A stretch of DNA of 64,000 nucleotides from Gemmatimonadota bacterium (GCA_038153405.1 JAYOYH010000002.1:123904-187903); one strand, 5' to 3'; shown: positions 25,096-50,493, numbered from the stretch's first letter. The notes: generated by a model not told the origin, from the letters alone. Made by a program: numbers and translations.

Positions 25096-25228
25096 TGCTG
25101 CCCATACGCACACACCACATTCGATGTATCTCATTTTTGCTCTTCGCATTACATTCGAGTGGTCTTAAAAGCACAATGAGGTATGGGTTTTTCATTGACC
25201 AAAGCACACGGAGTTTAAATTCTCCATT

Positions 25229-26590: not shown

Positions 26591-26824
26591 GCTGGTAGTG
26601 GATACACTAAACAAGTTAAACCCGAATAGGCCCTTGCCAACGCAAATTCCCTAAAAGGGAAAAAATTTCCACCACTTACTTTAAAAAGTTATTCTCTTTT
26701 TGCTGGTTGGTTATTTGGGTACACTCAAGTCCAACAAAATAGCTGCGTACGACAAATAGAATCGTTGGTATAGCCTTTGCTGTTGTGTGAAAGGAATTTT
26801 TCCTCCAGACAGGAGAGGTTTGTT

Positions 26825-27640: not shown

Positions 27641-27653
27641 TGCCACGTATCAA

Positions 27654-34681: not shown

Positions 34682-35611
34682 ATGGCAAATGCACTCCAGG
34701 GCCGTCGTCGCCTGCCCTCCTGGCTGAAGGCCAAGGCACCGGGGACACCCAACTACATCGACATCAAGAAGCTGGTAGCTGAAAAGCGCCTGCACACCGT
34801 TTGCGAGAGTGCCCACTGCCCCAATATCGGCGAGTGCTGGGGCCAGCGCACGGCCACGTTTATGATCCTCGGTGATATTTGCACGCGCAGCTGCGGTTTT
34901 TGCGCCATCAAAACCGGCAGACCGCAGTGGCTGGACGAGGGCGAACCCGAACGCGTCGCCGAGGCCGTGGCCTACCTCGATCTACGCCACGCCGTCATTA
35001 CCTCCGTCAATCGCGACGAATTGCCCGACGGCGGGGCGAGCGTTTTTGCTCGCACGCTCGAAGCACTGCATCGCCTCTGCCCGCAGACGACGGTCGAAGT
35101 GCTGATCCCCGACTTTCAGGGCAACTGGGACGCGTTGGAGACCGTTCTGCAGGCCGGTCCGGATATCCTCAACCACAATATCGAAACGGTGCCCCGGCTC
35201 TATTTTAAGATGCGGCCACAAGCCAAGTATGCACGCTCGCTAGAACTGCTCAATCGCGCGCGCACGGTCGGACCGGCCCCGACCAAATCGGGGATGATGC
35301 TGGGAGCCGGCGAGCGCGATGACGAGATCGCCCAAACCATTGACGATCTGGCCTCCGTCGGCTGCGCCATTTTGACCTTGGGCCAGTATCTGAGTCCCTC
35401 CGCTCAGCACGTACCTGTCGAGCGCTACGTCGAGCCCGACGAGTTCGACCGCTGGTACCACTACGCCATGCAGCGCGGATTCCGCCACGTAGAATCCGGA
35501 CCGCTCGTGCGTTCGTCCTATCACGCCGAAGCACAGGTCGATGAAGCGACGCGGCGCGCCGATGCACACGACCTACTGTCCGTAGCCCCCTTACCCATTG
35601 AGAAAGAGTAA
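34682..35611 (+). CDS. lipA: Lipoyl synthase
   Basis: CESAHCPNIGEC, CTRSCGFC, NHNIETV and RSSYHA. Confidence 0.97.
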   Translation: MANALQGRRRLPSWLKAKAPGTPNYIDIKKLVAEKRLHTVCESAHCPNIGECWGQRTATFMILGDICTRSCGFCAIKTGRPQWLDEGEPERVAEAVAYLDLRHAVITSVNRDELPDGGASVFARTLEALHRLCPQTTVEVLIPDFQGNWDALETVLQAGPDILNHNIETVPRLYFKMRPQAKYARSLELLNRARTVGPAPTKSGMMLGAGERDDEIAQTIDDLASVGCAILTLGQYLSPSAQHVPVERYVEPDEFDRWYHYAMQRGFRHVESGPLVRSSYHAEAQVDEATRRADAHDLLSVAPLPIEKE

Positions 35612-35619
35612 AGGCGCGA

Positions 35620-36624
35620 ATGAATCTGGAAAAAAAATCTCTATCCGGTTACCTGCAACGCAAAAAGCTCATCACGCGCGGCACGCCCATCCGCGTGCAG
35701 ACTCTGGGCGACGGCATGAAGAATCGCGTCTACTACGTTGCTGCTCCCAAGGAGGCATGGATCGTCAAGCAGGCCCACTCGCGCGTGCAGATCAAAGAGC
35801 GCTGGTGGGTCGATCGCAGGCGCATTTTCGCCGAAGACACCTGCATTGACATTCTGCGCCAATTTTTGCCGCCGGAAATTATTCCGCAGACCGTCTTAGT
35901 CGATCGCACGGACTTCGTATTGATAACTACACCACCGCCCGATAACGCCGTGCTGTGGGAGGACGATCTGGCCAGGGGGCGCATCGATCTGCAGATTGCT
36001 GTGCAGTGCGGCGAATTGCTGGCGACGGTGCACAACGAAACGGCCGAGCACCCCGAACTCAAGACGATGTTCAAAGACACCAAGGCCTTTGAGCAATTGC
36101 GCATCGAGCCGCATTACGAATACGTTACCAACGCCTTTCCCGACCTCAAGAAAGTCATCGACGCGCAGACCAAACGCCTCAAGAAAGAGACCCACTGCCT
36201 CGTATTGGGCGACCTGCGGCCGCGCAATGTATGGGTCAACTCCGGTCAGCTTTACCTAGTCGACTTCGCCACCGCGCACTTTGGTCACCCGGGCTTCGAC
36301 CTGGCGTTTTACGCGGCCGATATGTGCGTTAAGGCCATGCAAAATAGCCTGCAAAAAGCGGCCTACTTAGAGGCGATTAACGTATTTTGGAACGGCTATT
36401 TCAAGCTGGCTTCATACAAGGGGGTGAAAGAGATCGAAAAGCCCGCGGTGCGCGATTTGGGCTGCATGCTGCTGGCTGCCACCGACGGTCGACAGGCGAT
36501 CGAATTCGAAGACCCTCACGTCACCGGCCTCGCGCGCCGCATCGCCATGAGCCTGCTATTTACCGAGTTGGCGACGATCGAGGACATTACTGAGTTCATC
36601 AACCGAACGCTGATCGACGGGTAG
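35620..36624 (+). CDS. APH/methylthioribose-kinase-like phosphotransferase
   Basis: LGDG..N.V, IVKQA, FEQLRIEP, GDLRPRN, LVDF and G.PGFDL. Confidence 0.7.
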   Translation: MNLEKKSLSGYLQRKKLITRGTPIRVQTLGDGMKNRVYYVAAPKEAWIVKQAHSRVQIKERWWVDRRRIFAEDTCIDILRQFLPPEIIPQTVLVDRTDFVLITTPPPDNAVLWEDDLARGRIDLQIAVQCGELLATVHNETAEHPELKTMFKDTKAFEQLRIEPHYEYVTNAFPDLKKVIDAQTKRLKKETHCLVLGDLRPRNVWVNSGQLYLVDFATAHFGHPGFDLAFYAADMCVKAMQNSLQKAAYLEAINVFWNGYFKLASYKGVKEIEKPAVRDLGCMLLAATDGRQAIEFEDPHVTGLARRIAMSLLFTELATIEDITEFINRTLIDG

Positions 36625-36741: not shown

Positions 36742-37497
36742 CTAACCGCTGGCGGCCGCAAACTGCGCGCGCAGGTCTTCGCTGCTGGACAGCACGTGCT
36801 CTACCATTGCCGTGCGCGCCGCTTGCGCATCGCCGGCGCGCAGCGCGTTGGCAATGCACTCGTGCTGCTGCAGCGACAGCCGCGCGCGATCGGGCGCACG
36901 GCCCTCCTCGGCCAGCGAGCGTTCGATCCACTCCTGCAAATAGCCGCGCGTGGCTTCGAGCAATCCGGCCAATAGGGCGTTTTGCGTCGCGCCGGCTACC
37001 GCCAAATGAAAGCGCATATCCGCCGCCAAAAACTGCGCGCTGTCTTCTAGGGCTGAGGCCATGTCTGCCAGAGCGCCCTCAATGCGGCCCATATCCTCTT
37101 CTCCCGCTCGCTGTGCAGCCCAAAAGGCCGTCTCCGACTCCAACATAAGGCGCGTTTCGATCAGGTCGCCGACCATCTTGCGGTTGAGCAACATTCCCCA
37201 CTGCAGCGCTTTTTGTATAAACTGCTGGTTATCGCTGACAAAAGTCCCCTCGCCCACGCGGCCATCGATCACCCCCATCGCGCCCAGCGAGCGCAGCGCC
37301 TCGCGCAGCGACGAGCGCCCCACGCCAAAGCGCTTGCACAATTCGCGTTCGGGCGGCAGGCGATCGCCCGGGCGCAGCACGTCGCGCTTGATCAGACCGA
37401 TGATCTGCGCAATGATCTCATCGCTCAGCGAAGTGCGGGCAATCGGGCGAACGCTATCGGCCACCGCGTCGGACGAATCGGCGCTATTCGCATTCAT
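36742..37497 (-). CDS. FadR/GntR family transcriptional regulator
   Basis: PGDRLPPERELC..FGVGRSSLREAL wHTH and an FCD domain (D.RFH..VA.A..N, H..I..A). Confidence 0.93.
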   Translation of the reverse strand: MNANSADSSDAVADSVRPIARTSLSDEIIAQIIGLIKRDVLRPGDRLPPERELCKRFGVGRSSLREALRSLGAMGVIDGRVGEGTFVSDNQQFIQKALQWGMLLNRKMVGDLIETRLMLESETAFWAAQRAGEEDMGRIEGALADMASALEDSAQFLAADMRFHLAVAGATQNALLAGLLEATRGYLQEWIERSLAEEGRAPDRARLSLQQHECIANALRAGDAQAARTAMVEHVLSSSEDLRAQFAAASG

Positions 37498-37566
37498 AAA
37501 AATCAAATAAACTATTGTTTATGTTATTTTTATATAAAATATTTTTCACTTGCCTTAGCATTCTAT

Positions 37567-37595
37567 TTGCAATTGGTCTGACCATCAGCTATCTT
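37567..37595 (+). promoter_or_regulatory. Candidate sigma-70 promoter of the corrinoid operon
   Basis: TTGCAA-17 nt-TATCTT with an AT-rich upstream tract. Confidence 0.6.
37574..37584. promoter_or_regulatory. FadR-subfamily operator palindrome
   Basis: TGGTCTGACCA matches the TGGTCNGACCA-type FadR/LldR/PdhR operators and lies between the FadR gene and the divergent operon. Confidence 0.75.
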
Positions 37596-37600
37596 GTGAA

Positions 37601-37630
37601 AGTATAGCGCAATTCGTCCTCTGTCGTCAA
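37601..37630 (-). promoter_or_regulatory. Candidate sigma-70 promoter of the FadR gene
   Basis: Minus strand TTGACG-18 nt-TATACT. Confidence 0.6.
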
Positions 37631-37640
37631 GGGAAATGCC

Positions 37641-38279
37641 ATGGCTCTAACCCGCGATATCGGCACTCGCATCGAGCTGGTGCCCATGGATTTGCACTGC
37701 AGCAATATAACGGTCGCCCTCTACCGCCAAGACGGCTTCGAGGCGCCGGCCTACCTCATCCACACGTATAGCCAGCATCCCGATGCCCGCCAGCGCATCG
37801 AAGCGCTGCGCCAAGCGATGCTGGCCTTAGGCCATATGGAAATGGTTGGCGATGAGCAGCTGCGCTTCCCCTGTGGACATGCCCACCAATTTGCCGTGCG
37901 CCGGCTCTTTTTGGATGCCTGCAAGCGCGATCCATCGCTCGACCTGCAGACGCAGCCCCTGCGCATATTTGACAAGAAGAGCGAGGGACACATCGCCGTA
38001 GATAGCCTTGGCCACGGTCAATACTGCGTGCGCGCCGAAGAGGACAGCGCCGGCGTCGAGCGCCGCACGGCGACCATTGCGCGCGGCTTGATTCGCCTCG
38101 GCGAAATGGAAGAGACCGCCGACGATGCCAACCGCCTGTACTTTGCCTGTGGCCATTCGCACGACGCACTCATTGCCCAACTGCTGGTGCGCGCGCCGAA
38201 CGTGCGCGCGGCGATGCGCGAAGTCGAGGAGATGGCCCTGCGCGGTCAGCTCGTGGCCCCCAGCGCCCAGACCAACTAG
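37641..38279 (+). CDS. Hypothetical protein with two internal FxCGHxH repeats
   Basis: First gene of the operon, with an AAGGGA RBS. The repeats are LG.ME...LRFPCGHAH and LG.ME...LYFACGHSH. Confidence 0.8.
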   Translation: MALTRDIGTRIELVPMDLHCSNITVALYRQDGFEAPAYLIHTYSQHPDARQRIEALRQAMLALGHMEMVGDEQLRFPCGHAHQFAVRRLFLDACKRDPSLDLQTQPLRIFDKKSEGHIAVDSLGHGQYCVRAEEDSAGVERRTATIARGLIRLGEMEETADDANRLYFACGHSHDALIAQLLVRAPNVRAAMREVEEMALRGQLVAPSAQTN

Positions 38280-38287
38280 GAGATAGC

Positions 38288-39325
38288 ATGGCACACGTTC
38301 CCTCTATGAACAGCAGAGAGCGCGTTCTGGCCGCTCTCAACCGCCAGCCCGTAGACCGCACGCCGCTGTGCAATCCAACCTCGGTGGCCACCGTCGAACT
38401 GATGGACTTAGTCGACGCCCCTTTCCCCGAAGCCAACCGCCAACCCGAGCTCATGGCGCGCCTGGCCGCCACCGGCTATACCGAACTAGGCTTCGATACC
38501 ATTATGCCGGTGTTCTCCATCATTCAGGAATCTTCGGCGCTGGGCTGTAAGATTCAGTGGGAGCAAAAGGACAACTGGCCTACGGTGCGGATGAATGAGC
38601 CGATCTGGCAAACGCCCGACGACATCAAGGTGCCGACCGACCTGTGCACTCACCCCGACACCCAATGCGTCACCGACGCGATTGGCATTCTGCGCAAAGA
38701 GTACGGCGACGAGGTTGCCGTCATCGGCAAGACCATGGGGCCATGGTCACTGGGCTACCACTGCTTTGGCGTCGAACCCTTTTTGCTGATGTCACTCGAC
38801 GATCCAGGCAAGACCAAGCTGTGCTTGGACCGCATGAAGGAAATCACCGTCGAATACGGCCTAGCGCAGATCGAGGCCGGCGCCGATGCCCTGACGCTGC
38901 CCGACCACGCCACCGGCGACCTGGTCAGCGGCGAATACTACGAGCGCTATTTGCGCGACCTCCACATCGAGATGGCCGAGCGGTTGCCAGTGCCCATCAT
39001 TCTGCACATCTGCGGTCGCACCGTCGACCGCATGGAGTACATCGCCCAAACTGGCATGGCCGCCTTCCACTTCGATTCGAAGAATACGCCAATGGAATCG
39101 ATGGATATCGTCCGAGAGCGCATCGCCCTGGTCGGCAATATCAACAACCCCGAAACGCTCTTTTCCAAAGGGCCCGACGTCGTGCGCGAAGAAGTCTACC
39201 GCAATTTGGAAGCGGGGGTGCAGCTCGTCGGACCGGAGTGCGCCATACCGCTACAGACTTCGATTGAGAACCTGAAAGAAATTTCCCGCGCCGTGCGCGA
39301 TTGGCACGCCGGCCTCGACCGCTAG
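38288..39325 (+). CDS. MtaA/CmuA family corrinoid methyltransferase (URO-D fold)
   Basis: ERVLAAL....VDR, GPWS, AQIEAGAD, Zn ligands LHICG and GPEC, and GNINN. Confidence 0.88.
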   Translation: MAHVPSMNSRERVLAALNRQPVDRTPLCNPTSVATVELMDLVDAPFPEANRQPELMARLAATGYTELGFDTIMPVFSIIQESSALGCKIQWEQKDNWPTVRMNEPIWQTPDDIKVPTDLCTHPDTQCVTDAIGILRKEYGDEVAVIGKTMGPWSLGYHCFGVEPFLLMSLDDPGKTKLCLDRMKEITVEYGLAQIEAGADALTLPDHATGDLVSGEYYERYLRDLHIEMAERLPVPIILHICGRTVDRMEYIAQTGMAAFHFDSKNTPMESMDIVRERIALVGNINNPETLFSKGPDVVREEVYRNLEAGVQLVGPECAIPLQTSIENLKEISRAVRDWHAGLDR

Positions 39326-39335
39326 GAGAGATAGA

Positions 39336-40079
39336 ATGGCTGAAATCGGCGATATTGCCAACGAATTTATCCGCGACGAAATTGACGAGTTCCTCGAGCG
39401 CGACGACGAGCGGAAACGCAATATAGAGCACTTCGCGCGCACTAGGCTGCTCATGCAGGATATTGCCGCCGCCCTCATCGACGGAGCACATGAAACGGTA
39501 GACGAACTGACGCAGCAGGCGCTAGGCGAAGGTATTGAAGCACTAGAAATTATGGACGATGGCCTCATTGCCGGCATGGGCATCGTCGGCATCAAGTTCC
39601 GCGAGAACTTTATCTTTGTTCCCGAAGTGCTGGCCTGCGCGCGCGCCATGAAGGCCGGCATGGCGCACATCGAACCCATTCTCTCCGACTCGGGCATCGA
39701 ACCCATCGGCACCGTCGTCATGGGCACGGTCAAAGGCGACCTGCACGATATCGGTAAAAACCTGTGCATCATGATGCTGCGCGGCGCGGGTTTCGTCGTG
39801 CACGACCTCGGCGTCGACACCTCGGAAGACGAATTTATCGCCGCCATTGAAGAGCACGGCGCTAAACTGCTGGGCATGTCTGCCCTGCTGACGACGACGA
39901 TGCCCAATATGGGCAAGACGATCGAGGCCTTTATCGACGAGGACCTGCGCGACGACATCAAAATCATGGTCGGCGGCGCCCCCGTCACGCCGGAGTTCGC
40001 TGAAGATATGGGCGCCGACGGCTACGGCAAAGACGCCCTGGCCTGCGTCGAGTTGGCCAAGCATCTGCTGAGCGAATAG
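39336..40079 (+). CDS. Cobalamin-binding corrinoid protein (cap plus B12-binding domains)
   Basis: GLIAGM..VG.KF, FVPEVL, GTVKGDLHDIGKNL (DxHxxG), SALLTTTM and VGGAPVT. Confidence 0.95.
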   Translation: MAEIGDIANEFIRDEIDEFLERDDERKRNIEHFARTRLLMQDIAAALIDGAHETVDELTQQALGEGIEALEIMDDGLIAGMGIVGIKFRENFIFVPEVLACARAMKAGMAHIEPILSDSGIEPIGTVVMGTVKGDLHDIGKNLCIMMLRGAGFVVHDLGVDTSEDEFIAAIEEHGAKLLGMSALLTTTMPNMGKTIEAFIDEDLRDDIKIMVGGAPVTPEFAEDMGADGYGKDALACVELAKHLLSE

Positions 40080-40096
40080 CTCACAGCAGTCGACTC

Positions 40097-41989
40097 ATGG
40101 CATCAATCGATCCCAACGACTATCAAAAACGTCTCGACAAACTGTCTTCTCTGCTGGGCGATATGGTCCGCCACGCCGACGAGCAGGCACAGAGTCGCTG
40201 TCCCTACAAGAATCGCCACGGCGAGTGCACCGCTCAGTTTGGCTGCCGCAACCAGCGCAAAAACACCCAGGCCGGCGGGCTGCTGCTGTGCGCAGGCGAT
40301 GATCAGTTAGACTACCGCAGCGCGTGGGAGGGAATCGAACGTCCGGCTCAGCGCCCAGGCCAAGACGGCAGGGGGCGCATTCTAAGCGGCGCGCGCTCCT
40401 GCGTCGCACAGAGTCGCCGCACGCTTTTTGACGCCGCCGACGTGCTGGACGTAGCCGTGCCGACGTCGTGCTATCGCACGGGCAGCTGCCACGAGTGCAT
40501 CATCGAGGTCAAACGCGGCATGGAGGCCCTCAACGAGCGCACGGGCGAAGAGCGCTTTCTGCGCGACGACTATCGCCTGGCCTGTCAGGCCGAAGTCATC
40601 GATGCCGACATCGACATTGAGTTCATACCTCTCAATCGAACCCCCCGCATACTGACCCTCTCTACGGGCCAGCCCGATGAAGTCGCGCCGCTAGTAGAGC
40701 GTCGCCATGACAAAGTCTACTTTGAAGAAGACTACATAGACGATTATCGCGGCCGCATGTTGGGTATCGCCGTTGATTTGGGCACGACCACTGTAGCTAT
40801 GGAGTTGCTCGACCTGGAAACGGGCCAGAGCGTGCAGGTCGCCTCGTTTGAAAATCCACAGCGCTTTGGCGGTAGCGACGTCATGAACCGCATATCCTAC
40901 GACGCGCAGCACCCGCGCGAGCTGCGCCAGGCCATCGTCAAGGCACTCAACCGCCAGATTGCCCGCTGGTGCGAACTGTACTCCATTCACCGACACTGCA
41001 TTTACGAAATTGTCATCGCCGGCAATTCGACCATGCGCGATATCCTCTTTCGCTTCGACGTGCAGGGCATTGGTCAGAGGCCCTACAAATCGCAGGTCGA
41101 GTTGGAATACCTCGACGGTCGGCGCACGCACACCGCCCTGAGCGAAAAGACGCGCCGCCTCGGCCTGCGCGCCCATCCCAAAGCGCGCGTCTACGGCCTG
41201 CCGCTCATCGCCAGCCATGTCGGGGCCGATGCGGCCGCCGATTTATGTGCGACCCGGCTCGACGCCTCGTCGGACGCCGCCCTGCTAATCGACGTGGGCA
41301 CCAATACCGAAGTCGTAGCCATACACAACGGGCGCATGGTTGCCGCCTCTTCTCCGGCCGGACCGGCCTTTGAAGGCGGCACCGTAACCTACGGCATGCC
41401 CGGATACGAAGGCGCCATTGAACGCCTGCGCTGGAACGGCGCGGCGTGGGAGTACAAGACCATCGGTGACCTCGCACCGCAGGGCATCTGTGGCTCGGGC
41501 CTGGTCGACCTACTCGCCGAACTCCGACGCCACGACCTCATGTCGCCCAAGGGAGCTTTTGCCCATCGCCAAAAAGAAATCGCCGTGGTGCCGGATAGAG
41601 GAATTACTTTTTCGCGCCTCGACGCCTCGAACTTGGCCCAGGCCAAAGCGGCCAACTACTGCGGCCAATACATCGTGCTGCGCGCGCTTGGCCTGGCTCC
41701 TGCCCAGGTAAAAAAGCTCTATTTGGCCGGCGGCTTTGCCCACTACGTCGATGCCCAAGCGGCCATCGATATCGGCTTTTTGGCTCCGGTGCCCATAGAG
41801 CACATAGAGAAAATTGGCAACGCCTCGCTGCAGGGCGCACGCGATGTGCTGCTATCAAAAAACAAGCGGCGCCAATTGGAAAAATTGGTCGGCCATATCG
41901 AGCACGTCGAGTTGGAAACAACGCCCGACTTCTTCGAGCTCTTCGTCGATGGTTGCCAGTTCAAGCCCATGCCATCCGTCCTGAGCTGA
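40097..41989 (+). CDS. ATP-dependent reductive activator of corrinoid proteins (RamA/RACo, ASKHA plus 2Fe-2S)
   Basis: 2Fe-2S motif C...GSCHEC...RLAC, DLGTTT, NPQ.FG.DV.NRI, GNSTM, DVGTNTE, AGPAFEG, GICGSG, LAGGF and GNASL.G. Confidence 0.92.
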   Translation: MASIDPNDYQKRLDKLSSLLGDMVRHADEQAQSRCPYKNRHGECTAQFGCRNQRKNTQAGGLLLCAGDDQLDYRSAWEGIERPAQRPGQDGRGRILSGARSCVAQSRRTLFDAADVLDVAVPTSCYRTGSCHECIIEVKRGMEALNERTGEERFLRDDYRLACQAEVIDADIDIEFIPLNRTPRILTLSTGQPDEVAPLVERRHDKVYFEEDYIDDYRGRMLGIAVDLGTTTVAMELLDLETGQSVQVASFENPQRFGGSDVMNRISYDAQHPRELRQAIVKALNRQIARWCELYSIHRHCIYEIVIAGNSTMRDILFRFDVQGIGQRPYKSQVELEYLDGRRTHTALSEKTRRLGLRAHPKARVYGLPLIASHVGADAAADLCATRLDASSDAALLIDVGTNTEVVAIHNGRMVAASSPAGPAFEGGTVTYGMPGYEGAIERLRWNGAAWEYKTIGDLAPQGICGSGLVDLLAELRRHDLMSPKGAFAHRQKEIAVVPDRGITFSRLDASNLAQAKAANYCGQYIVLRALGLAPAQVKKLYLAGGFAHYVDAQAAIDIGFLAPVPIEHIEKIGNASLQGARDVLLSKNKRRQLEKLVGHIEHVELETTPDFFELFVDGCQFKPMPSVLS

Positions 41990-41997
41990 GGCGCGCC

Positions 41998-43605
41998 GTG
42001 AGTAAGTCACACCCGCCCCGACGCTACTCGGGCGCCTGGCAGAAAGAGAGCCTGCGCGACCTGCTGACAGGTGACGCAGCGTTCGTCCATATCGTCGAGT
42101 TGGTCACTTCGCGCGGCGTCATGGCAGAGAAAGACGGACGGCGCGTCCTATCGCTGGCCCGCCGCCTGTGCGAGCACCCGGAAGTGCATGCCCTAAGCAT
42201 CACCGACAACCCCGGGGGCAATGCCATGATCAGCGCCGATACCCTCGGCACCGACCTACTCTCGCGCGGCCAGGAAGTCATCATCCATATCTCCTGCAAA
42301 GATTGGAATCGCAACGCCCTGCAGGGCCGGGCATGGCAACTGGCTAGCGAGGGTTTTGACAACGTCTTATGTCTGTCCGGCGACTACCCGACCAGCGGCT
42401 ATCAGGGGTTGGCCAGCGGGGTATTCGATATTGACTCCATCGGCCTACTGCAAATGTTTAGCGCGCTCAATGCCGGCCTGTCCGTTGCCGGCCGCAGCAA
42501 GGCGCGACGCTTGCAAAAAACCCATTTTCTGCTGGGTGCGGCAACCAATAACCACAAGCGCTACGAACGCGAGGTCATGCCGCAGTACTTCAAATTGGCC
42601 CAGAAGGTGAGCAACGGCGCCGACTTTATCATCAGTCAGATCGGCTACGACGCGCGCAAGCAGGACGAACTGCTCCGCTATATGCGCCTATACCGCATCG
42701 ACGTGCCGGTCATAGCCAATGTCTTTGTGCTCAGCGCCGGAGTAGCGCGCTATTTTCACGGCGGCCACATTCCCGGCGTAGAGGTTACCGATCGCCTGCT
42801 AGCCCTCTGCGAGCAACAGGCCCAATCGCCGGACAAGGGCAAAGCCTTTTTCCTCGAGTTGGCTGCTCAACAGTGCGCCATCGCGCGCGGTCTGGGCTAT
42901 CGAGGCGCTTACCTGGGCGGCCATCTGCAGTACGGCGACTACGAAAAAATTATCGCCATAGCGCAGAGCTATGCCCCCGACGACTGGCGCGATTTTGCGC
43001 GCCAGATCGACTTTTCCCATCCCGACGAGTTCTATTTTTTTGAGCGCGACCCATCGAGTGGCCTGAGCAGCGATGCGATTAACTCCACCTACCTAGCGTC
43101 CAAGGACAGCAAGGCGCGCAAGGGGTTGCAGCGCGAAGTCTCCAGCACCTATAAGCTCAGCCGCATCGCCCACGAATACCTGTTTGCACCGAATAGTCGC
43201 GGCTATAAGACTGGACAAAAGCTGGCTGCGGCCCTGGAGAACAGCCCCAACGCCCAGCGATTTCTGCACGCCGTAGAGCAGGCCACCAAAGTGCCCCTTT
43301 TCGACTGCCGCGACTGCGGCGACTGTTCACTACCCGACATCGCCTATTTATGCCCCGAATCGCAGTGCGTTAAAAACCAGCGCAACGGACCGTGCGGCGG
43401 AACGCGCCAGGGACTGTGTGAAGTGGGCGATAAGGAGTGCATATGGTCGCGCGCCTATGAGCGGTTGAAGGCATACGGGCAAGAGGAGTACATGCTCGAA
43501 CGCCCTGCCGTCATTAAAGACAGCGCGCTGCGCGGAACCAGCGCTTGGCTCAATACCTATGCCGGTCGCGATCACCGCGGGCGCAACGGGGAGGATACGC
43601 CGTGA
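41998..43605 (+). CDS. Methylenetetrahydrofolate reductase with fused C-terminal Cys-rich MTHFR_C (MetV-like) domain
   Basis: ITDN, H.SCKD.NR, LSGD and K...GADFIISQ. C-terminal CRDCGDC...CPESQC.KNQRNGPCGG...CEV...CIW. Confidence 0.88.
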   Translation: MSKSHPPRRYSGAWQKESLRDLLTGDAAFVHIVELVTSRGVMAEKDGRRVLSLARRLCEHPEVHALSITDNPGGNAMISADTLGTDLLSRGQEVIIHISCKDWNRNALQGRAWQLASEGFDNVLCLSGDYPTSGYQGLASGVFDIDSIGLLQMFSALNAGLSVAGRSKARRLQKTHFLLGAATNNHKRYEREVMPQYFKLAQKVSNGADFIISQIGYDARKQDELLRYMRLYRIDVPVIANVFVLSAGVARYFHGGHIPGVEVTDRLLALCEQQAQSPDKGKAFFLELAAQQCAIARGLGYRGAYLGGHLQYGDYEKIIAIAQSYAPDDWRDFARQIDFSHPDEFYFFERDPSSGLSSDAINSTYLASKDSKARKGLQREVSSTYKLSRIAHEYLFAPNSRGYKTGQKLAAALENSPNAQRFLHAVEQATKVPLFDCRDCGDCSLPDIAYLCPESQCVKNQRNGPCGGTRQGLCEVGDKECIWSRAYERLKAYGQEEYMLERPAVIKDSALRGTSAWLNTYAGRDHRGRNGEDTP

Positions 43606-44630
43606 ATATACCCGCTATCGGCAAGCCCTTTATCGTCATTGGAGAAAACGTCCACACCACCCGCGTGCTTTCGCGCAAGGGCAAGCTGATTGCCTCTGAC
43701 GCTGAGGGTCGAGAGGGCATCCGCTTTCGCGACATCCATAATAACCGGCGCTTTTTGCCCATCCCCGAAGATGTAAAAAGGACGCGGGACTACGAAGAGG
43801 GCCGCATTAAACACCTCAAAATCGCCGTGCGCGAAGCGATGTCGGGCAGCGCAGATGCGCTTGACTACATCGCCCGACAGGTGCAGCGCCAAGAACGGGC
43901 CGGTGCCGACTTTCTCGATCTCAACGTCGACGAGATATCTATCCGCGTCGAGGAACAGCAGGAAGCCATGCGCTGGCTAGTTGGTGCCGTGCACTCCATG
44001 AGTGCGCTTCCTCTCTCTATCGACTCGTCCAATAGCGATATTCTGCGCGCCGGCCTAGAGTCCTGTGCCGATCACGCGCGGCGGCCGCTGCTCAACTCGG
44101 CCTCGCTCGAGCGCCTCGACGGCCTCGACGTGGCGCGCGCGTTCCATGCGAAGGTCGTCATCACGGCAGCGGGCAAATCCGGTATGCCCAACGATGTCGA
44201 AGAGCGCATAACGTATGCCATGCGCATGGTCGAAGAGGCGAACGGACGCGGCATAGCGCTGTCCGACCTATTTATCGACCCGCTGATCTTTCCCATTTCC
44301 GTCGATGGCCGCTACGGTCAGCACGCCTTTGGCGCCATTGCCCAACTGCGCACGCAGCTAGGCGACGACGTGCATATAACCGGCGGCTTTTCCAACGTAT
44401 CTTTTGGCCTGCCGTGTCGACAGCTCATCAACGATGTCTTCCTGATGCTCGCCGTTGAAGCCGGTGCCGATAGCGCTATCCTCGACCCAACGAGCAGCCC
44501 ATTAACCGATATCTTTTCCATCGACCGCGATGCACCAGCTTACCGGCTGGCTGAAGACGTGCTGCTGGGCAAAGACGAATACTGCACCCGCTTTATCCGC
44601 GCCTATCGCAAGGGCGAATTGACGGCCTAA
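43602..44630 (+). CDS. Pterin-binding methyltetrahydrofolate:corrinoid methyltransferase (MetH folate module / MeTr-like)
   Basis: VIGENVH, GADFLDLN, PLSIDSS, LLNS, FIDP, GGFSNVSFGLP and AILDP. The GTG start overlaps the upstream stop (GTGA). Confidence 0.88.
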   Translation: MNIPAIGKPFIVIGENVHTTRVLSRKGKLIASDAEGREGIRFRDIHNNRRFLPIPEDVKRTRDYEEGRIKHLKIAVREAMSGSADALDYIARQVQRQERAGADFLDLNVDEISIRVEEQQEAMRWLVGAVHSMSALPLSIDSSNSDILRAGLESCADHARRPLLNSASLERLDGLDVARAFHAKVVITAAGKSGMPNDVEERITYAMRMVEEANGRGIALSDLFIDPLIFPISVDGRYGQHAFGAIAQLRTQLGDDVHITGGFSNVSFGLPCRQLINDVFLMLAVEAGADSAILDPTSSPLTDIFSIDRDAPAYRLAEDVLLGKDEYCTRFIRAYRKGELTA

Positions 44631-44704
44631 ACACGCCGCGCTAAACGGCCTGTTCGCCGCTGCTACGCTGGCTTTTTCCAACCCTTTACATAGATTATTT
44701 ACCT

Positions 44705-45706
44705 ATGAAACCATTTATCGAACGCATAGCCGAAGAACGTCCTCTGCTCTATGACGGCGGTTTTGGCTCGCAGCTTTTTGTCCGCGGCATCGAGCTGACC
44801 AACAGCACGTTGGCCAACGAATTGCATCCCGATACGGTCGTCGAGATCCATCGCACTTATATCGAGGCGGGGGCCGACGCCATTGGCACCAATACGTTTG
44901 TCGCTTCGGAGCTGCACTTGGAAATGGCCGGCAAAGACCCGTCGGCCGCAGGCCAACTGGCTACCCATGCAGCTCAACTGGCTCGGCGCGCCGTCGAGGA
45001 AAGCGGACGCGACACCTATGTAGGCGGCTCCATCGGCCCTTCTCCCGGCGCCATTGAATCGGACGCCGGCGACACCACCTTTGGCATTGCCGATGCCAAG
45101 GTGCGCGACGCTCATGCGCGCATTATCGACGCGCTGGTCGAAGGCGGCGTTGACTTCTTTGCCATTGAGACCCAGTTCTCTGCCAAAGAGGCTGCCTTAG
45201 CCTGCAATATTGCCCGCCAGGCGGGCCTGCCGATCGCCATTAACCTGACGCTCAAATACACTAAAGATCGCAAAACGGGGGTCGTCACCTACAAGACCGA
45301 CTGGGGCCATTCGCCAACCGATCTAATCGACCTGCTCGCTTCTGGAGAGTTTTCCAACGGAGACAACCTACTCGACCACGTGCACCTGCTCGGTCTTAAC
45401 TGCGGAGCGGAAACCCGCCGCAGCGAGCACACCGGCATGGCCTATGCCATCTGCGGCAGCGATCAAATAGGGCAGGCCCTGCAGGAGCGCGGTCTGTCCA
45501 AGCGCATTATGACCTATCCCAATGCCGGCATGCCGCAGCTCGACAGCGAACTCCGGACATCCTATTCGCAGACGCCGGAAGACATGGCGGCACATATCCC
45601 CAACCTGCTCGACAGCGGTGCCTATATCATCGGCGGTTGCTGCGGCACTACCCCCGACCACATCCGCGCCTTCCGCCAGGCCATCGACGAGCACGCGGCA
45701 GCGTAG
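44705..45706 (+). CDS. Homocysteine S-methyltransferase domain protein (stand-alone MetH N-module)
   Basis: DGGFGSQL, H..YIEAGAD...TNTF, GSIGP, IET, Zn ligands GLNC and GGCCGT, and YPNAG.P. Confidence 0.92.
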   Translation: MKPFIERIAEERPLLYDGGFGSQLFVRGIELTNSTLANELHPDTVVEIHRTYIEAGADAIGTNTFVASELHLEMAGKDPSAAGQLATHAAQLARRAVEESGRDTYVGGSIGPSPGAIESDAGDTTFGIADAKVRDAHARIIDALVEGGVDFFAIETQFSAKEAALACNIARQAGLPIAINLTLKYTKDRKTGVVTYKTDWGHSPTDLIDLLASGEFSNGDNLLDHVHLLGLNCGAETRRSEHTGMAYAICGSDQIGQALQERGLSKRIMTYPNAGMPQLDSELRTSYSQTPEDMAAHIPNLLDSGAYIIGGCCGTTPDHIRAFRQAIDEHAAA

Positions 45707-45709
45707 GCC

Positions 45710-45994
45710 ATGATCCACTATCAGGTGCTTTACTGGCGCGATATACCGGCTCAAATAAAAGTCTACGCCGGGCGCCGTCCCACTTCACACGCTCTAGCAC
45801 AGCGCTTTCAGGCGGCCATTGATCGCATCGCCATGCGCGAAGGCCTGACCGGCACCGAGGCCTATCTCGACCAGTGGCAGTGGTCGGAGAAACGCCCTTA
45901 CGAAGGCGATGCAGAAGAAGCGGCTGCTCTCCTTGTGGATCAGCTGGAACGCGAGGGCGATGCACAGCTAGCCGCACGCAGGGAAGCTCCATGA
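45710..45994 (+). CDS. Virulence_fact (PF13769-like) small protein
   Basis: YWRDIPAQ.K, L..RFQ.AID..AM and YL.QW, matching the family seen beside split MetH/MTHFR genes. Confidence 0.8.
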   Translation: MIHYQVLYWRDIPAQIKVYAGRRPTSHALAQRFQAAIDRIAMREGLTGTEAYLDQWQWSEKRPYEGDAEEAAALLVDQLEREGDAQLAARREAP

Positions 45995-47880
45995 GCACCT
46001 TTGAGAAACGCTACGACGTACTCGTGGTGGGCGGCGGTCACGCCGGCACTGAGGCCGCCTTGGCCGCGGCGCGCATGGGAGCAGAAACCCTGCTGCTGAC
46101 GATGAATCTCGATACCATTGGCCAGATGTCGTGCAACCCGGCCATCGGCGGTATCGGCAAGGGCCATATGGTCAAGGAAATCGACGCGCTCGGCGGACAA
46201 ATGGCCGTCAATATCGACCGCACGGGCATTCAGTTTCGCCGCTTAAATACCAGCCGCGGGCCGGCCGTGCGCGCCTCGCGCGCCCAGGCCGATAAAAAAG
46301 ACTACCAGTTTGAGCTGAAGTTTGCCTGCGAAATGCAGGCACACCTCGATCTGCGCCAGGGGCTGATGGAGTCACTGCATATCGCCGACGGACGCGTGCA
46401 GGGCGTCGGCGTCAAAGGCGGCATAACCTACTTAGCGCACAGCGTCATTCTCACCACCGGCACCTTTCTGCGCGGCAAGATCCACGTAGGCGACTTTTCC
46501 TACAGCGCCGGACGCGCCGGCGAGACGTCGGCCGAGAAAGCATCGGCAGGTTTGGTCGCCCTAGGCTTTGAAATTGGCCGCCTTAAAACGGGCACACCGC
46601 CGCGCGTCAACGGACGCACGCTGGATTTCGATGGCATGGAAATCCAACCCGGCGACGATCCACCGCGACCGTTTTCCTATGCGGTCGAGCGCATTCAGCA
46701 AGAGCAACTGCCTTGTTGGGTAACGTATACGAATGCCGACACCCATCGACTCATCGAAGACAACTTGAGTCGCTCGGCCATGTACAGCGGCCGCATTGAG
46801 GGCATCGGACCGCGCTACTGTCCTTCCATTGAAGACAAGGTCGTGCGCTTTGCCGACAAAGAGCGCCACCAGATTTTTGTCGAACCCGAGGGTCGCCGCA
46901 CCCTCGAATACTATATCAATGGCCTGTCGATGAGCCTGCCCGAAGAACTGCAGACGCGCATCGTGCGCTCGCTGCCCGGATTGGAACGGGCCGATATTAT
47001 GCGCCCGGCCTACGCCGTTGAATACGACTATGCCCCTCCGACCCAACTCTACCCTCATCTCGAGACCAAGCGGGTAGAAAACCTATTTTTCGCCGGACAA
47101 ATCAACGGCACGACCGGCTACGAGGAAGCCGGTGCACAGGGCTTAGTAGCCGGCATCAATGCCGTGCTCAAGGTGCGCGGCGAAGCGCCTTTCGTGCTCG
47201 GGCGCGCCGACGCCTACATCGGCGTGCTCATCGATGACCTAGTCACAAAGGGTACGCAAGAGCCCTATCGGATATTCACCTCGCGCGCCGAACACCGCCT
47301 GCTGCTGCGCGAGGATAATGCCGACTATCGCCTGATGGAATTGGGTCGCGCCTTTGGTCTGGTCGAAGATTCGATCTGGCAACGGTATCAAAACAAGCGC
47401 CGCGCCGTCGACGCCGAACTCGAGCGCCTGGTGGAGACGCGTCTGCGCCCTTCGGACAGCGTGAACGAAGTCTTTGCCGAAGCCGGCACCGCCCCGTTAA
47501 AAGAGGCCGCCTCGCTGATCGAAGTTCTGCGCCGGCCCGAGTTGAGCTATCGCCACATAGAACGCCTGTGTCCCCCCGATACCGCGCTTTCGGCCGATGC
47601 GGCCGAACACGTGGAAGCCGAGGTCAAGTACGACGGCTATATCAAGCGCCAGCACACCCAGGTCGACAAACTCAAGCGCCTCGAATCCATGCGCATTCCC
47701 GCCGATTTTGACTTTGCCGATCCCGCGCTCAATCTGTCTACCGAAGGCCGGCAAAAATTAGCTCATATTCGCCCACAAACCCTCGGACAAGCGTCGCGCG
47801 TATCGGGCGTTTCCCCAGCCGACGTCTCGTCGTTGATGGTGCTGCTGCACGCGCATACCGCGCGCACAGCGGCCCCCTAA
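45991..47880 (+). CDS. mnmG: tRNA uridine-5-carboxymethylaminomethyl(34) synthesis enzyme MnmG
   Basis: GGGHAG.EAA, MSCNPAIGG, RLKTGTPPR, GPRYCPSIEDK and AGQINGTTGYEEA. Confidence 0.97.
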   Translation: MSTFEKRYDVLVVGGGHAGTEAALAAARMGAETLLLTMNLDTIGQMSCNPAIGGIGKGHMVKEIDALGGQMAVNIDRTGIQFRRLNTSRGPAVRASRAQADKKDYQFELKFACEMQAHLDLRQGLMESLHIADGRVQGVGVKGGITYLAHSVILTTGTFLRGKIHVGDFSYSAGRAGETSAEKASAGLVALGFEIGRLKTGTPPRVNGRTLDFDGMEIQPGDDPPRPFSYAVERIQQEQLPCWVTYTNADTHRLIEDNLSRSAMYSGRIEGIGPRYCPSIEDKVVRFADKERHQIFVEPEGRRTLEYYINGLSMSLPEELQTRIVRSLPGLERADIMRPAYAVEYDYAPPTQLYPHLETKRVENLFFAGQINGTTGYEEAGAQGLVAGINAVLKVRGEAPFVLGRADAYIGVLIDDLVTKGTQEPYRIFTSRAEHRLLLREDNADYRLMELGRAFGLVEDSIWQRYQNKRRAVDAELERLVETRLRPSDSVNEVFAEAGTAPLKEAASLIEVLRRPELSYRHIERLCPPDTALSADAAEHVEAEVKYDGYIKRQHTQVDKLKRLESMRIPADFDFADPALNLSTEGRQKLAHIRPQTLGQASRVSGVSPADVSSLMVLLHAHTARTAAP

Positions 47881-47910: not shown

Positions 47911-50229
47911 TTAAAAGTGCAGCGTTACGCTCGCACCTACCTGGCGTGGATCTCCATAGCTAATATAGAGTTTGTCTTCATAGGTCGGCGGCTCTAAACC
48001 AAAGTAAAAGCCGCGCACGCCATAGCGCTCGTCCAACAGGTTGCTTGCCCACATAGTCACGACCCAGTTCGCCTGCTCCCAGCCCATGCTCGCATTGACG
48101 AGTTGGCGGGCATCGGCGCGCTGGTCATGACTGTCAGAAAAATAGAATCCGTCGACAAATGACCACGCGGCACGCGCAAAGAATCCGCCACTGTGTGCGT
48201 ATTCCCACCCGGCGCGCAGCCCCCACTCCGGCGCGTGTGCGGCGGCGCGTCCTCCTAATTGCTGGCGCTGACCACCTGCCACATCGAACCCATAGAGATC
48301 TACATACGTGTTCAAGTAGGCCAACGATGCAAATGCATTCAGGCTGGGTCGCAATCGATACTGACCCTCCACTTCGACTCCGCTGTTGCGCCCCGAAGCC
48401 GCATTGGCCGTAAAATAGAAGAAGCTGTTGGGGTCGCCGGGGGTTTGCTGGCTAGATAAGCTGACCTGCTGCCCATCGCGCAGGGCATGGAAGGCAATGA
48501 GTTCAACGCGGTAGCGCTCGTCCGAGAGGCGATAACCCGCCTCCAAGTTGAGCATGTATTCGGGATTGTAGGGCCGATTTTGCGCCGCCAGATAGGGGTG
48601 CTGGTTAATACCACCGGCGCGATAGCCGCGCGCCATGGCCACATAGGCCGTCGTACCCCGACGATCTTGCCAGTTGAGCGCCACTTTGCCGCCGGGCAGC
48701 CACTGCCCTACATCGTAGCGCACATCGTCTACTCCACCATTGGTCTGGCCGCTGTAGTCTATTGTGCTGTGCTCAAATCGCGCGTTGAGCATTAGCTGCC
48801 AAGCCGAACTCAGCGCCCGTTCCCACTGCCCATAGAAGGCGATATTGCCCATATCATAGCGCGCCTGTAAATCGCTGGCCGCGCCGCCGAATAAGTACCC
48901 CACGGCGTCGTCCTCTTCGCGCAGCGCGCGCGCATATAGGCCGAAGAGCGCACGGCCCCCTCTGAGCCGCACCTCCTGGCTTATACTCGTGCGCTGGCGC
49001 AGCGTGCGGTCGAAAAAGTCGTAGTGCCACCCCTCTACCTGCGGATCAAAGCCGTATGCCTCGCTCGCCCAAAAGGCATCGTTGCCCCAATCGCCATCGT
49101 AGCTGTAATCGAGATCGGTCTGTGCATAGGTGCTGATAGACAGTATATCTATACTCGCAGTGAGCGCCTTCTCTGCGCGCAGGGCCAGTGCCGTAGTCAC
49201 CTGGCGATCGTCGCCGGGACGATCGGAATAGGTCGTCAACTGCCGGTTATTGTCCGGCGCCCACATATCGTAGCCGTTGGCCCCATCGGCGCGAAACAGC
49301 GTAGCCTTGAGCAACAATCCGTTTGACGCCGCATAGCGCGCCTTTACGCGCAGCAGCCCCTCGCGGCGCCGATTGCTATCATCGACGCCCAAGTAGGCGT
49401 TGTCGCGAAAGCCGTTGGATGCGGCCAGTTGATAACCGGCGCGCAGCGCAAAGCGATCGCCGACGGGCGCGTTTATTACGCCTTCGGCCCGCAGGAGCCC
49501 GTCGCCGCCGAAGGCCTGACCCACCGTACCACCCGCCTTCGAAGAAGGATCGGCCGATTCTACATTAATCAAGCCCGCTAGCGCGTTGGCGCCAAAGGCG
49601 CTCGACTGCGGCCCCTTGAAAACCTCTATCTGCTGCAGATCAAAGAGCGCTCCAGTGCCCAGTCCGCTCATGTCGACGCCGTCCACGACAAAGCCGACGG
49701 AAAAATTCGGGGCTCCCTCGCCCGCATATTGACTGCGCTCGCCAATGCCGCGCACCTGAAAATAACGCGGACGCGCCGTGCCGCCGGCCCAGTGTAGGTT
49801 TGGGACCGCCGGCACGATGTCCTGCACGTGCTGCGCGCCGCTCCTGTGCACTTGCTCCCCGCCCACCACGCTCACGCCAGCCGCAACCTCGGTGCGCGAC
49901 TCGGCGCGCAGACCGCCAACGACCATAACCTCCCGGACTTGCAGCACATCGGCTACCAACGCAACGCGCACGAACTCGTCGTCTCCGCTCAGCACCCATA
50001 AAATTGGTTGGTAGCCAAAGCGCTCGAAGCGCAGCGTATCGCCGGCAGCGGACTGGGCGACAAAGCCGCCGTCAGCGCCACTTCTATACACCCACTCGCC
50101 CACCCCGACCTGCACCTCCTCTATCGGCATACCCGTCTCGGCATCAACCACTTGACCGCGCACCTCCGCCGCGTGGCATACGCCTACGGCAGCGACCCAC
50201 AGCCCGACAAAAACACTGAGCAACACCAT
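47911..50229 (-). CDS. TonB-dependent receptor, probably for thiamine or a precursor
   Basis: Signal peptide, carboxypeptidase-like N-domain, plug (VRGIG...VDGVD...EVFKGPQ...GG), beta-barrel and terminal F. Lies downstream of a TPP riboswitch. Confidence 0.9.
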   Translation of the reverse strand: MVLLSVFVGLWVAAVGVCHAAEVRGQVVDAETGMPIEEVQVGVGEWVYRSGADGGFVAQSAAGDTLRFERFGYQPILWVLSGDDEFVRVALVADVLQVREVMVVGGLRAESRTEVAAGVSVVGGEQVHRSGAQHVQDIVPAVPNLHWAGGTARPRYFQVRGIGERSQYAGEGAPNFSVGFVVDGVDMSGLGTGALFDLQQIEVFKGPQSSAFGANALAGLINVESADPSSKAGGTVGQAFGGDGLLRAEGVINAPVGDRFALRAGYQLAASNGFRDNAYLGVDDSNRRREGLLRVKARYAASNGLLLKATLFRADGANGYDMWAPDNNRQLTTYSDRPGDDRQVTTALALRAEKALTASIDILSISTYAQTDLDYSYDGDWGNDAFWASEAYGFDPQVEGWHYDFFDRTLRQRTSISQEVRLRGGRALFGLYARALREEDDAVGYLFGGAASDLQARYDMGNIAFYGQWERALSSAWQLMLNARFEHSTIDYSGQTNGGVDDVRYDVGQWLPGGKVALNWQDRRGTTAYVAMARGYRAGGINQHPYLAAQNRPYNPEYMLNLEAGYRLSDERYRVELIAFHALRDGQQVSLSSQQTPGDPNSFFYFTANAASGRNSGVEVEGQYRLRPSLNAFASLAYLNTYVDLYGFDVAGGQRQQLGGRAAAHAPEWGLRAGWEYAHSGGFFARAAWSFVDGFYFSDSHDQRADARQLVNASMGWEQANWVVTMWASNLLDERYGVRGFYFGLEPPTYEDKLYISYGDPRQVGASVTLHF

Positions 50230-50251
50230 ATACACTACTCCCAATCTGCAC

Positions 50252-50287
50252 AAAAAAACCGCTTCCCAGCACTAAGTGGGAAACGGT
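50252..50287 (-). terminator. Riboswitch-controlled intrinsic terminator
   Basis: Minus strand ACCGTTTCCCA-loop-TGGGAAGCGGT followed by a T run, between the aptamer and the RBS. Confidence 0.85.
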
Positions 50288-50310
50288 GAGCGACATGCGA
50301 CCAGCGCGCT

Positions 50311-50387
50311 CCGTTTCCCTACGCTGGCACGATCCAGTTCAGGTTCTAAGGGTTTTATCTCAGGCTCGCGCGAGCCACCCCCAACGG
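50311..50387 (-). ncRNA. TPP (thi-box) riboswitch
   Basis: Minus strand CCGTTGGGGGTG-GCTCGCGCGAGC-CTGAGATAAAACCCTTAGAACCTGAACTGGATCGTGCCAGCGTAGGGAAACGG contains the conserved GGGG.G, CTGAGA, ACCC, GAACCTGA and CCAGCGTAGGGAA elements. Confidence 0.95.
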
Positions 50388-50493
50388 ATACTACTATACA
50401 AAATATACGCACGCGCACGGCGCGCGACAATCTGCTATATTAAGTTCACGGCGGCGCACCAACCAACACATGCACTATCAGAGGAAAACCAAC

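Follow-up and report, generated by a model that had tools for sequence, protein, structure and literature searches.

In the aerobic bacteria Ruegeria pomeroyi and Phaeobacter inhibens, methyl groups are handled by an MtgBCDE/MetF2/RamA hub and a three-part MetH, respectively, built from separate corrinoid, pterin-binding and homocysteine (Hcy) methyltransferase proteins together with a RamA-type activase, a MetF with DUF5981 and a PF13769 protein (PMC12478193, PMC5764234), and the MtgBCD hub is able to replace MetH (PMC12478193). In type 1 mlp clusters, for which a role in methyl-S/Se metabolism or methionine salvage has been proposed, a MtaA-like protein with a His-Cys-Cys zinc site shares one run with a corrinoid protein and Ram/RACE (PMC10418091), and the MtaA family includes MtpA, a thioether-specific MT1 demethylase (10.1101/548461). 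Here, we describe a system with features of each, at positions 36742 to 45994 of a 64,000-nucleotide stretch of a Gemmatimonadota bacterium genome (GCA_038153405.1, JAYOYH010000002.1:123904-187903; the window). Its constant core consists of a protein of a family without description (CGH), a MtaA-like methyltransferase, a stand-alone corrinoid protein and the corrinoid activase RACo, while the arms leading to homocysteine and to folate/MetF are added on and can stand in for one another. We propose that it is an inducible demethylase of a methyl-thioether operating on a MtgCDE/MetF2/RamA hub, with homocysteine or tetrahydrofolate (THF) as acceptor, and consider the chances that this reading is correct to be about evenly balanced.

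The chemistry of the hub is known; the methyl input here differs. The window operon is like the Ruegeria and Phaeobacter hubs in its aerobic host, in its separate corrinoid, pterin and Hcy proteins, in the activase, MetF-DUF5981 and PF13769 components, and in a tendency to replace MetH, but it lacks a MttB-family MtgB and a DUF1638 protein, has a MtaA-like input enzyme of UroD fold with a new partner, carries a predicted FadR operator, and stands beside a full MetH in 21 of the 32 cluster-bearing relatives (PMC12478193, PMC5764234). In the 93% complete genome carrying the window (G000; other G labels are relative genomes and L labels are loci), PF06253, the MttB family that provides the input methyltransferase of the MtgBCD glycine betaine demethylase, had 0 matches, and DUF1638 (PF07796) had none. 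Like the type 1 mlp clusters, the window encodes a His-Cys-Cys protein, a corrinoid protein as well as a Ram-type activase co-directionally; it differs in having one Mlp, not two or more, in its aerobic hosts, CGH partner and dedicated Hcy methyltransferase, and in a THF methyltransferase inside the cluster, which the mlp definition excludes within 20 kb (PMC10418091). With the Cmu chloromethane pathway (pCMU01), the system shares the MtaA/CmuA family, an aerobic host and folate oxidation genes near some loci, but CmuA, 24% identical, fuses the enzyme and corrinoid domains that are separate genes in the window, and no Hcy arm or RACo occurs in the 24.7 kb of pCMU01 examined. A description of the cassette was not found in the literature searched, most subscription papers lying outside it, and the supplements of bioRxiv preprints and of PMC12478193 could list it; the available part of PMC9999580 holds nothing on it, and the three supplementary files of PMC10418091 contain no Latescibacter, Poribacteria, Bryobacter, Gemmatimonad, Chloroflex or Acidobacter term.

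The conserved core and its acceptor arms

The eight co-directional genes and the divergent FadR gene reported in the initial annotation were all confirmed by gene calls and Pfam/NCBIfam matches (Table 1). Its gaps of mostly under 20 nt hold for six of the seven, the spacings read from the sequence being 8, 10, 17, 8, -4, 74 and 3 nt, with the 74-nt gap preceding the Hcy methyltransferase gene; Rfam agrees with it across the window in finding no SAM or B12 riboswitch at gathering thresholds; and the gene set supports its view that one corrinoid protein is common to several methyltransferases. What changes is the emphasis. The annotation read the operon as a split methionine synthase plus a demethylation input, a first refuting condition being that the CGH and MtaA-like genes were not conserved with the cluster, whereas these two, the corrinoid protein and RACo are constant and the Hcy, pterin and MetF genes vary.

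CGH is present in 35 of the 41 class genomes. Among 34 relative loci fetched, several of which stop at a contig edge, 31 carry MtaA, 31 the corrinoid gene, 30 RACo and 26 the Hcy methyltransferase, and 16 carry FadR, 16 PF13769, 12 MTHFR and 11 the pterin enzyme. Of the 406 stretches confirmed by scanning GTDB genomes, the best 80 include MtaA 79 times, the corrinoid gene 74 times and RACo 71 times. MtaA lies within 2 kb downstream of CGH in 150 of 154 loci, counting all loci with 2.5 kb downstream of CGH and some genomes twice, and it does not do so in one Poribacteria locus and in three genomes belonging to a single family, two of which have MtaA at the head of a corrinoid operon at another place. 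The MtaA orthologues are 78 to 97% identical to the window protein (163 sequences), far above CGH (about 50%) and RACo (about 60%). Among the record titles of the GTDB stretches are Poribacteria, Bryobacterales, Vicinamibacterales, Ca. Moanabacter, and Gamma- and Betaproteobacteria, and the MtaA-like orthologue spans Latescibacterota, Poribacteria, Acidobacteriota, Verrucomicrobia and rare Proteobacteria. A close orthologue occurs in 107 of the 115 class genomes of a phylum sample, in 30 of 251 Bryobacterales (the order of G156), and in 2 of 201 and 1 of 401 genomes of two proteobacterial orders, a patchy spread at about 79% identity that suggests transfer. MtaA paralogues at 41 to 48% identity, plus two at 68%, have no CGH or corrinoid genes (14 of 14 loci, 7 to 19 kb examined) and are not treated as part of the system, although the pair at 68% does enter the count of 109 given below; those at 41 to 48% (L238-L249) form a stand-alone sister group.

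A full MetH, AdoMet reactivation domain included, is encoded in G000 (contig C1; NF007024, 1903 versus 1497 bits; TIGR02082, 1598 versus 1011 bits), and the operon is therefore not the housekeeping methionine synthase. The same genome has a fusion of Hcy methyltransferase and MTHFR, and two short MetE-like Meth_synt_2 genes 3.5 kb apart (C30:32633-38167, L232). The search for canonical metH, metE and DUF1638 that the annotation had called for thus yielded the first, Meth_synt_2 proteins below all NCBIfam cut-offs for the second, and no match for the third. A stand-alone pterin enzyme was found in 19 of the 41 class genomes. Of the 32 class genomes whose cluster includes CGH, 5 of the 21 that have MetH keep the pterin enzyme, as do 10 of the 11 that have no MetH; these counts are not independent of kinship, 11 of the 21 MetH genomes being one genus. 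Retention of the pterin enzyme where MetH is missing matches the pattern of the MtgBCD hub replacing MetH (PMC12478193). Eleven genomes of one genus keep the Hcy arm and lack the pterin enzyme, which is also lost in G002, G003, G006, G014 and G024, while in G174, G210, G230, G282 and G299 the pterin enzyme is in the cluster and a fused MetH is the sole PF02574 match (51 genomes searched). Since some genomes keep the Hcy arm alone and others the pterin enzyme alone, either arm appears to be enough, and by gene content the partner of the MtaA-like enzyme is homocysteine or folate, depending on the lineage, with both present in G000. In L147 and L252-L255, FadR has upstream of it another Hcy methyltransferase gene, which is more distant, and G026 has 18 PF02574 matches in one genome.

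For the corrinoid protein, the best NCBIfam model is MtgC_2 (205 bits, under the cut-off of 370), and the pterin enzyme is 34% identical to that of a Mtg-type cluster in Paracoccus methylovorus. The N-terminal 80 or so residues of RACo (40097-40340, +) form an extra Cys-rich domain, CPYKN...C...FGC...C, that no Pfam family covers; many loci encode it as a small open reading frame (ORF) of its own, and it gave weak Atlas leads below 0.8 in Chloroflexota and Acidobacteriota. PF13769 homologues were located in alphaproteobacterial corrinoid clusters. G000 also has FolD, PurU and Fhs. An aerobic host is inferred from cytochrome c oxidase subunit I (CoxA), which scores above its cut-off, and corrinoid is probably taken up, since a tblastn search of G000 with six CM4 cobalamin synthesis proteins gave a single weak CobM-like match.

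The zinc enzyme, the CGH protein and the predicted operator

The MtaA-like protein belongs to the MtaA/CmuA subfamily by TIGR01463 (243.7 bits, cut-off 235.4) and PRK06252 (256.3 bits, cut-off 244), and falls under the equivalog cut-offs for MtaA (228.8 versus 400) and MtbA (200.4 versus 600). Its predicted model superposes on the methanogen coenzyme M methyltransferase MtaA of M. mazei (4AY7) with a TM score of 0.91 at 29% identity; the two share the UroD-type barrel and the zinc ligand motif, and the sequence match to MtaA has an E value of 7.5e-49. His240, Cys242 and Cys318 are invariant in 50 sequences. This ligand set marks S/Se methyltransferases, whereas O-demethylases of the superfamily substitute one or both Cys ligands, carboxylates being among the substitutions (PMC10418091, Kountz and Balskus). 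Because the His-Cys-Cys site is kept, and the loss of Cys ligands seen in the UroD-type O-demethylases OdmB, VdmB and MtvB is not observed at C242 or C318, an S- (or Se-) methyl donor is favored over an O-methyl one. Active-site positions named for MtaA are T28, Q29, R70, L75 and Q94 (PMC13618148). In a pairwise alignment with a numbering offset of 9, T28 is kept as T31, and Q29, R70, L75 and Q94 correspond to S32, M73, I78 and W97, all five of which are invariant in the orthologues as aligned; if the arginine binds sulfonate, its replacement by Met would argue against coenzyme M. The MtaA family offers in MtpA a precedent for a thioether-specific MT1 (10.1101/548461), and CdmB, by contrast, has no zinc (PMC13222342). 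Two homologues bear the JGI name 'methylthiol:coenzyme M methyltransferase', an automatic label. G000 has two URO-D matches, the MtaA-like gene and a HemE-like scorer on contig C42.

The CGH family comprises 599 homologues in 279 clusters at 50%, and close records are mostly titled Latescibacterota or Gemmatimonadota, which suggests a Ca. Latescibacterota host. The predicted model (pLDDT 86.5) has two tandem alpha/beta repeats, and C78/H82 and C170/H174/D175 are invariant in close homologues. No Pfam or NCBIfam family, no Atlas match and no Foldseek match at E<=0.001 was obtained, and the best VIA match (Z 7.3 over 88 residues, to urea carboxylase) is within background; this lack of a structural match does not show a new fold. 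No similarity to a DUF1638 protein was found. A distant branch, which includes a Dehalococcoidia protein, in part lacks the CGxxH motif, and a catalytic metal site is doubtful because the distant homologues P0371 and P0379 do not have it.

Upstream of the operon, a FadR-type palindrome, TGGTCTGACCA, lies 57 to 67 nt before CGH, within the 17-nt spacer of a promoter-like TTGCAA (37567-37572) and TATCTT (37590-37595), read by eye as weak and sigma-70-like with 8 of 12 matches and under the scanner threshold. A regulator with GntR and FCD domains beside an intergenic palindrome of this form agrees with what is expected of a FadR-type divergon, the subfamily consensus being NyGTM-N0-1-KACNy (PMC4494728). 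A single TGGT-N3-ACCA match in the window is within chance (28 of 100 shuffles contain one); the palindrome is meaningful because it is conserved across loci. It occurs within 250 nt before CGH in 13 of the 16 relative loci with divergent FadR and in none of the 18 without it, and over all 191 loci with enough upstream DNA, duplicates included, in 75 of 112 with FadR and 3 of 79 without. Within G000, the window site is the best (score 28.6, next 18.1), a wide margin that makes the regulon look local; second sites in nine relatives precede unrelated genes with no common target. This tracking of FadR presence supports the FadR control claimed in the initial annotation, and FadR is the predicted repressor of the operon, which would then be inducible.

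Methyl donor and direction of transfer

In the mechanism we propose, an effector (the substrate or a derivative) would release FadR from the predicted operator. RACo would reduce Co(II) to Co(I) using ATP, as its family does, and the zinc site may bind the sulfur of R-S-CH3 for methyl transfer to Co(I), as in MtpA, with CGH as a putative accessory subunit. The Hcy methyltransferase would then make methionine in a near-isoenergetic thiol-to-thiol transfer, or, alternatively, the pterin enzyme would make methyl-THF, to be used by MetH or oxidised by MetF, FolD and PurU; in genomes that lack MetH, a second task for the corrinoid, pterin and Hcy proteins would be to act as a split methionine synthase. 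Demethylation direction, inducibility and oxidation via MTHFR are the parts of this scheme that we infer.

Clues to the donor come from neighboring genes. In 113 loci, mostly outside Latescibacterota, the neighbor families are 2-hydroxyacid dehydrogenases (14 loci), APH kinases (10), PurU (8) and Ldh_2 (6); PurU adjoins FadR in eight metagenome loci, and Fhs lies downstream of the cluster in L262. In the Gammaproteobacteria L078 and L108, which are one lineage (2 of 201 in the order) and hence one event, the core sits inside a co-directional run of a major facilitator superfamily (MFS) sugar transporter, short-chain dehydrogenases (SDRs), two homologues of enolase-superfamily acid-sugar dehydratases and an aldehyde dehydrogenase, joined in L108 by a FAH hydrolase. 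In the window, lipA and an APH kinase gene (34682-36624, +) precede the FadR gene, and in loci without FadR (L013, L020, L090, L094), the APH gene runs directly into CGH. Effectors of the FadR subfamily are often carboxylic acids (PMC4494728). From these neighbors, a methylated carboxylate or sugar derivative of small size is indicated but not identified; taken with the predicted zinc ligands, they would point to a methylthio derivative, and the most likely donor class is a methylthio carboxylate or methylthio-sugar derivative. The initial annotation had speculated on an O-methyl sugar as one candidate; the sugar-acid genes flanking the cluster in the two Gammaproteobacteria speak for that part of its proposal, and the His-Cys-Cys site is a poor fit to it (PMC10418091).

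A more specific version of the thioether reading is that the system cleaves, in aerobic bacteria, the methylthio group of a sugar acid derived from methylthioadenosine (MTA) or 5-methylthioribose, passing methyl via corrinoid to homocysteine or folate and leaving a free thiol acid, with CGH as a new-fold demethylase subunit; we regard it as distinctly unlikely. The APH protein of the window has only 2OLC (methylthioribose kinase, E 4.6e-5) and 2PYW as PDB matches, and in the three lineages where such kinases flank the cluster (the window, L156 and L102), the best PDB matches are likewise of the methylthioribose-kinase type. G000 has MtnA, and acireductone dioxygenase was not found in four of five genomes. 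Against this version, the kinase matches are all weak (E 3e-8 to 5e-5), with the window protein below the TIGR01767 cut-off, and G157 has both the dioxygenase and the cluster. The kinase motif of the window protein reads LGDLRPRN, not HGDLH. A dihydroxyacetone phosphate (DHAP) shunt was considered and dropped: the class II aldolase of G000 does not adjoin mtnA, which counts against a methylthioribose acid as well.

Several points weigh against thioether demethylation in general. Methyl transfer from a thioether to THF is uphill, and loci with the pterin enzyme alone need a pull. CmuA too has a H-x-C...C motif, and the zinc ligands are thus no proof of a sulfur donor. No transporter conserved with the cluster was found. 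FadR is not present in 18 of the 34 relative loci, the 14 Poribacteria loci having FadR yielded no motif within 250 nt, and the search for further operator sites gave neither a convincing second one in G000 nor a target common to the relatives. In G155, the 10 kb examined contain neither arm. Among the 32 class genomes, the pattern of pterin enzyme and MetH suggests that the folate arm mainly supplies methyl groups. Even the first step, from thioether to cob(I)alamin, is unfavorable, by about +20 kJ/mol for MtpA (10.1101/548461).

The same energetics favor the opposite direction, in which the MtaA-like enzyme is a MT2 that methylates a thiol, sulfide or selenol for detoxification or synthesis, with methyl from methyl-THF or methionine and independently of SAM, a possibility we consider unlikely. 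Transfer from methyl-THF to a thiol is downhill in every gene arrangement seen, and would proceed directly in the pterin-only loci and via methionine regenerated by MetH in the Hcy-only loci; MetH is present in 16 of the 17 cluster genomes without the pterin enzyme, the closest solved relative is the MT2 MtaA, and Fhs beside the cluster in L262 fits a supply role. The arguments for demethylation are that PurU beside FadR in eight loci is consistent with methyl carbon being disposed of as it is in the cmu cluster, that the sugar-acid run around the cluster in L078 and L108 looks catabolic, and that FadR regulators usually control catabolism. Retaining demethylation with an energy-rich donor, a Cmu-like system would take methyl from a methyl halide or a sulfonium such as dimethylsulfoniopropionate (DMSP) or S-methylmethionine and oxidise it via methyl-THF. 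Such donors make the THF arm downhill, the association with MetF and PurU mirrors cmu, FolD, PurU and Fhs are all in G000, and MtgC-type corrinoid proteins are close to that of CmuA (PMC12478193), but the low identity of 24% shared with the catalytic domain of CmuA (E 2e-4 versus E 7.5e-49 to MtaA) and the lack of a detectable pterin enzyme in 17 of the 32 cluster-bearing class relatives make it highly improbable. O-demethylation, with an O-methyl sugar or a sugar acid bearing a methyl group as donor, would fit the surroundings of the core in L078 and L108 (sugar transporter, SDRs, dehydratases and aldehyde dehydrogenase) and the 2-hydroxyacid dehydrogenases that flank 14 of 113 loci. It is nevertheless highly improbable: both Cys ligands, one or more of which the O-demethylases of the superfamily replace (PMC10418091), are invariant here, and the two Gammaproteobacteria count as one event.

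No better supported, and equally improbable, is the recycling of methyl-selenium by a system resembling the type 1 mlp clusters, in which methylselenol or dimethylselenide would be demethylated to give selenide for selenoproteins. It would suit the His-Cys-Cys site, since ClMlp2 methylates selenide (PMC10418091). G000 has SelD with an in-frame TGA, and SelD occurs in 108 of the 109 phylum-sample genomes with the orthologue as against 10 of 42 without it, and in 34 of 34 further CGH-bearing genomes. The phylum contrast is, however, largely one class against the rest, and in the order of G156 (Bryobacterales), SelD is about as frequent in genomes lacking the orthologue (193 of 221) as in those carrying it (28 of 30), i.e., without enrichment; moreover, SelD was not found in G027, G220 and G254, which have the orthologue, and no sel genes were found recurring beside the cluster. 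The selenium link, strong in the phylum sample and lost in the control, was not used as support. The SelD gene of G000 (C77:1726-2649; L233, L285) probably encodes a selenocysteine-containing protein, as it does in most class relatives, and the family members in which the search for SelD came up empty are the three that carry only the stand-alone sister form of the MtaA-like protein, G013, G016 and G080. The slightest chance of all belongs to an ordinary split methionine synthase accompanied by passenger genes. Separate Hcy, pterin and corrinoid proteins with a RamA-like activase are all in the window and match the P. inhibens set (PMC5764234), and in 11 cluster-bearing relatives without the MetH reactivation domain, the hub probably makes methionine. 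G000, on the other hand, has its full MetH, with PF02965, so that the hub would not be its sole B12-dependent methionine synthase, and has no detectable DUF1638 partner; MtaA is the most conserved cluster gene, and the MetH-like arms are variable. For G000, this reading appears to be already contradicted by the co-conservation of CGH and MtaA.

Features of the window and significance

Table 1. Genes and predicted sites of the FadR-linked corrinoid operon in the window
Feature	Position	Strand	Basis or remark
Methylthioribose-kinase-like APH protein	35620..36624	+	possible associate
FadR-subfamily GntR regulator, predicted operon repressor	36742..37497	-	Pfam GntR and FCD; divergent from CGH
Predicted FadR operator CAATTGGTCTGACCATCAG, core TGGT-N3-ACCA at 37574-37584	37570..37588	.	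sequence, conservation
Promoter-like site facing fadR, TTGACG-18-TATACT	37601..37630	-	consensus match only; 2 found versus 3.8 expected in shuffles
CGH protein, 212 aa	37641..38279	+	family without description; no Pfam or NCBIfam match
MtaA/CmuA-family (UroD fold) corrinoid methyltransferase, predicted substrate-facing	38288..39325	+	TIGR01463, PRK06252; His240-Cys242-Cys318
Stand-alone corrinoid protein, MtgC-like methyl carrier, DLHDIG motif	39336..40079	+	Pfam B12-binding, B12-binding_2
RamA/RACo ATP-dependent corrinoid activase	40097..41989	+	Fer2, Raco_middle, RACo_C_ter
Methylene-THF reductase (MTHFR) fused to Cys-rich DUF5981 (MetV-like); optional folate arm	41998..43605	+	
Pterin-binding methyl-THF:corrinoid methyltransferase, MtgD/MeTr-like; optional folate arm	43602..44630	+	
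Stand-alone Hcy S-methyltransferase, MtgE-like, LNCG and GGCCG zinc motifs; optional homocysteine arm	44705..45706	+	
PF13769 'Virulence_fact' small protein	45710..45994	+	label historical

The start of mnmG (45991-47880, +) overlaps the last operon gene by 4 nt, and given this overlap, the co-directional run may extend past 45994. The product is a methylene-THF-using tRNA modification enzyme, and a family with mnmG sequence recurs in 25 Latescibacterota loci. On the other strand (47911-50392), a thiamine pyrophosphate (TPP) riboswitch at 50299-50392 (72.7 bits), the sole Rfam match in the window, lies ahead of a TonB-dependent receptor that probably serves thiamine uptake. The region 24001-28000 has a GC content of 0.43 to 0.52, compared with about 0.60 elsewhere, and the gene caller left the interval between 25092 and 28359 free of ORFs. 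Four RNA runs contain 5 to 8% of the words, with short contigs covering the operon and flanks alike and DNA carry-over possible, and speak neither for nor against expression; a viral contig search gave a single 13-residue match only.

To the described hubs, the locus adds a hub beside a full MetH, an operator footprint, interchangeable arms, pocket substitutions and a failed selenium control. A MtaA-type enzyme about 80% identical over at least five phyla, near-fixed in a class of Latescibacterota and always traveling with the undescribed CGH protein, suggests that the turnover of a common methylated metabolite has been overlooked. FadR, with its single predicted operator, could be used to sense the effector. 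Should the donor be an S-methyl compound, methyl-sulfur cycling and methionine salvage in aerobic bacteria of sponges, oceans, lakes and soils would gain a further, B12-dependent branch, and, if the proposal is true, many uncultured bacteria with an aerobic life would recycle methyl groups and sulfur by a route that has been overlooked.

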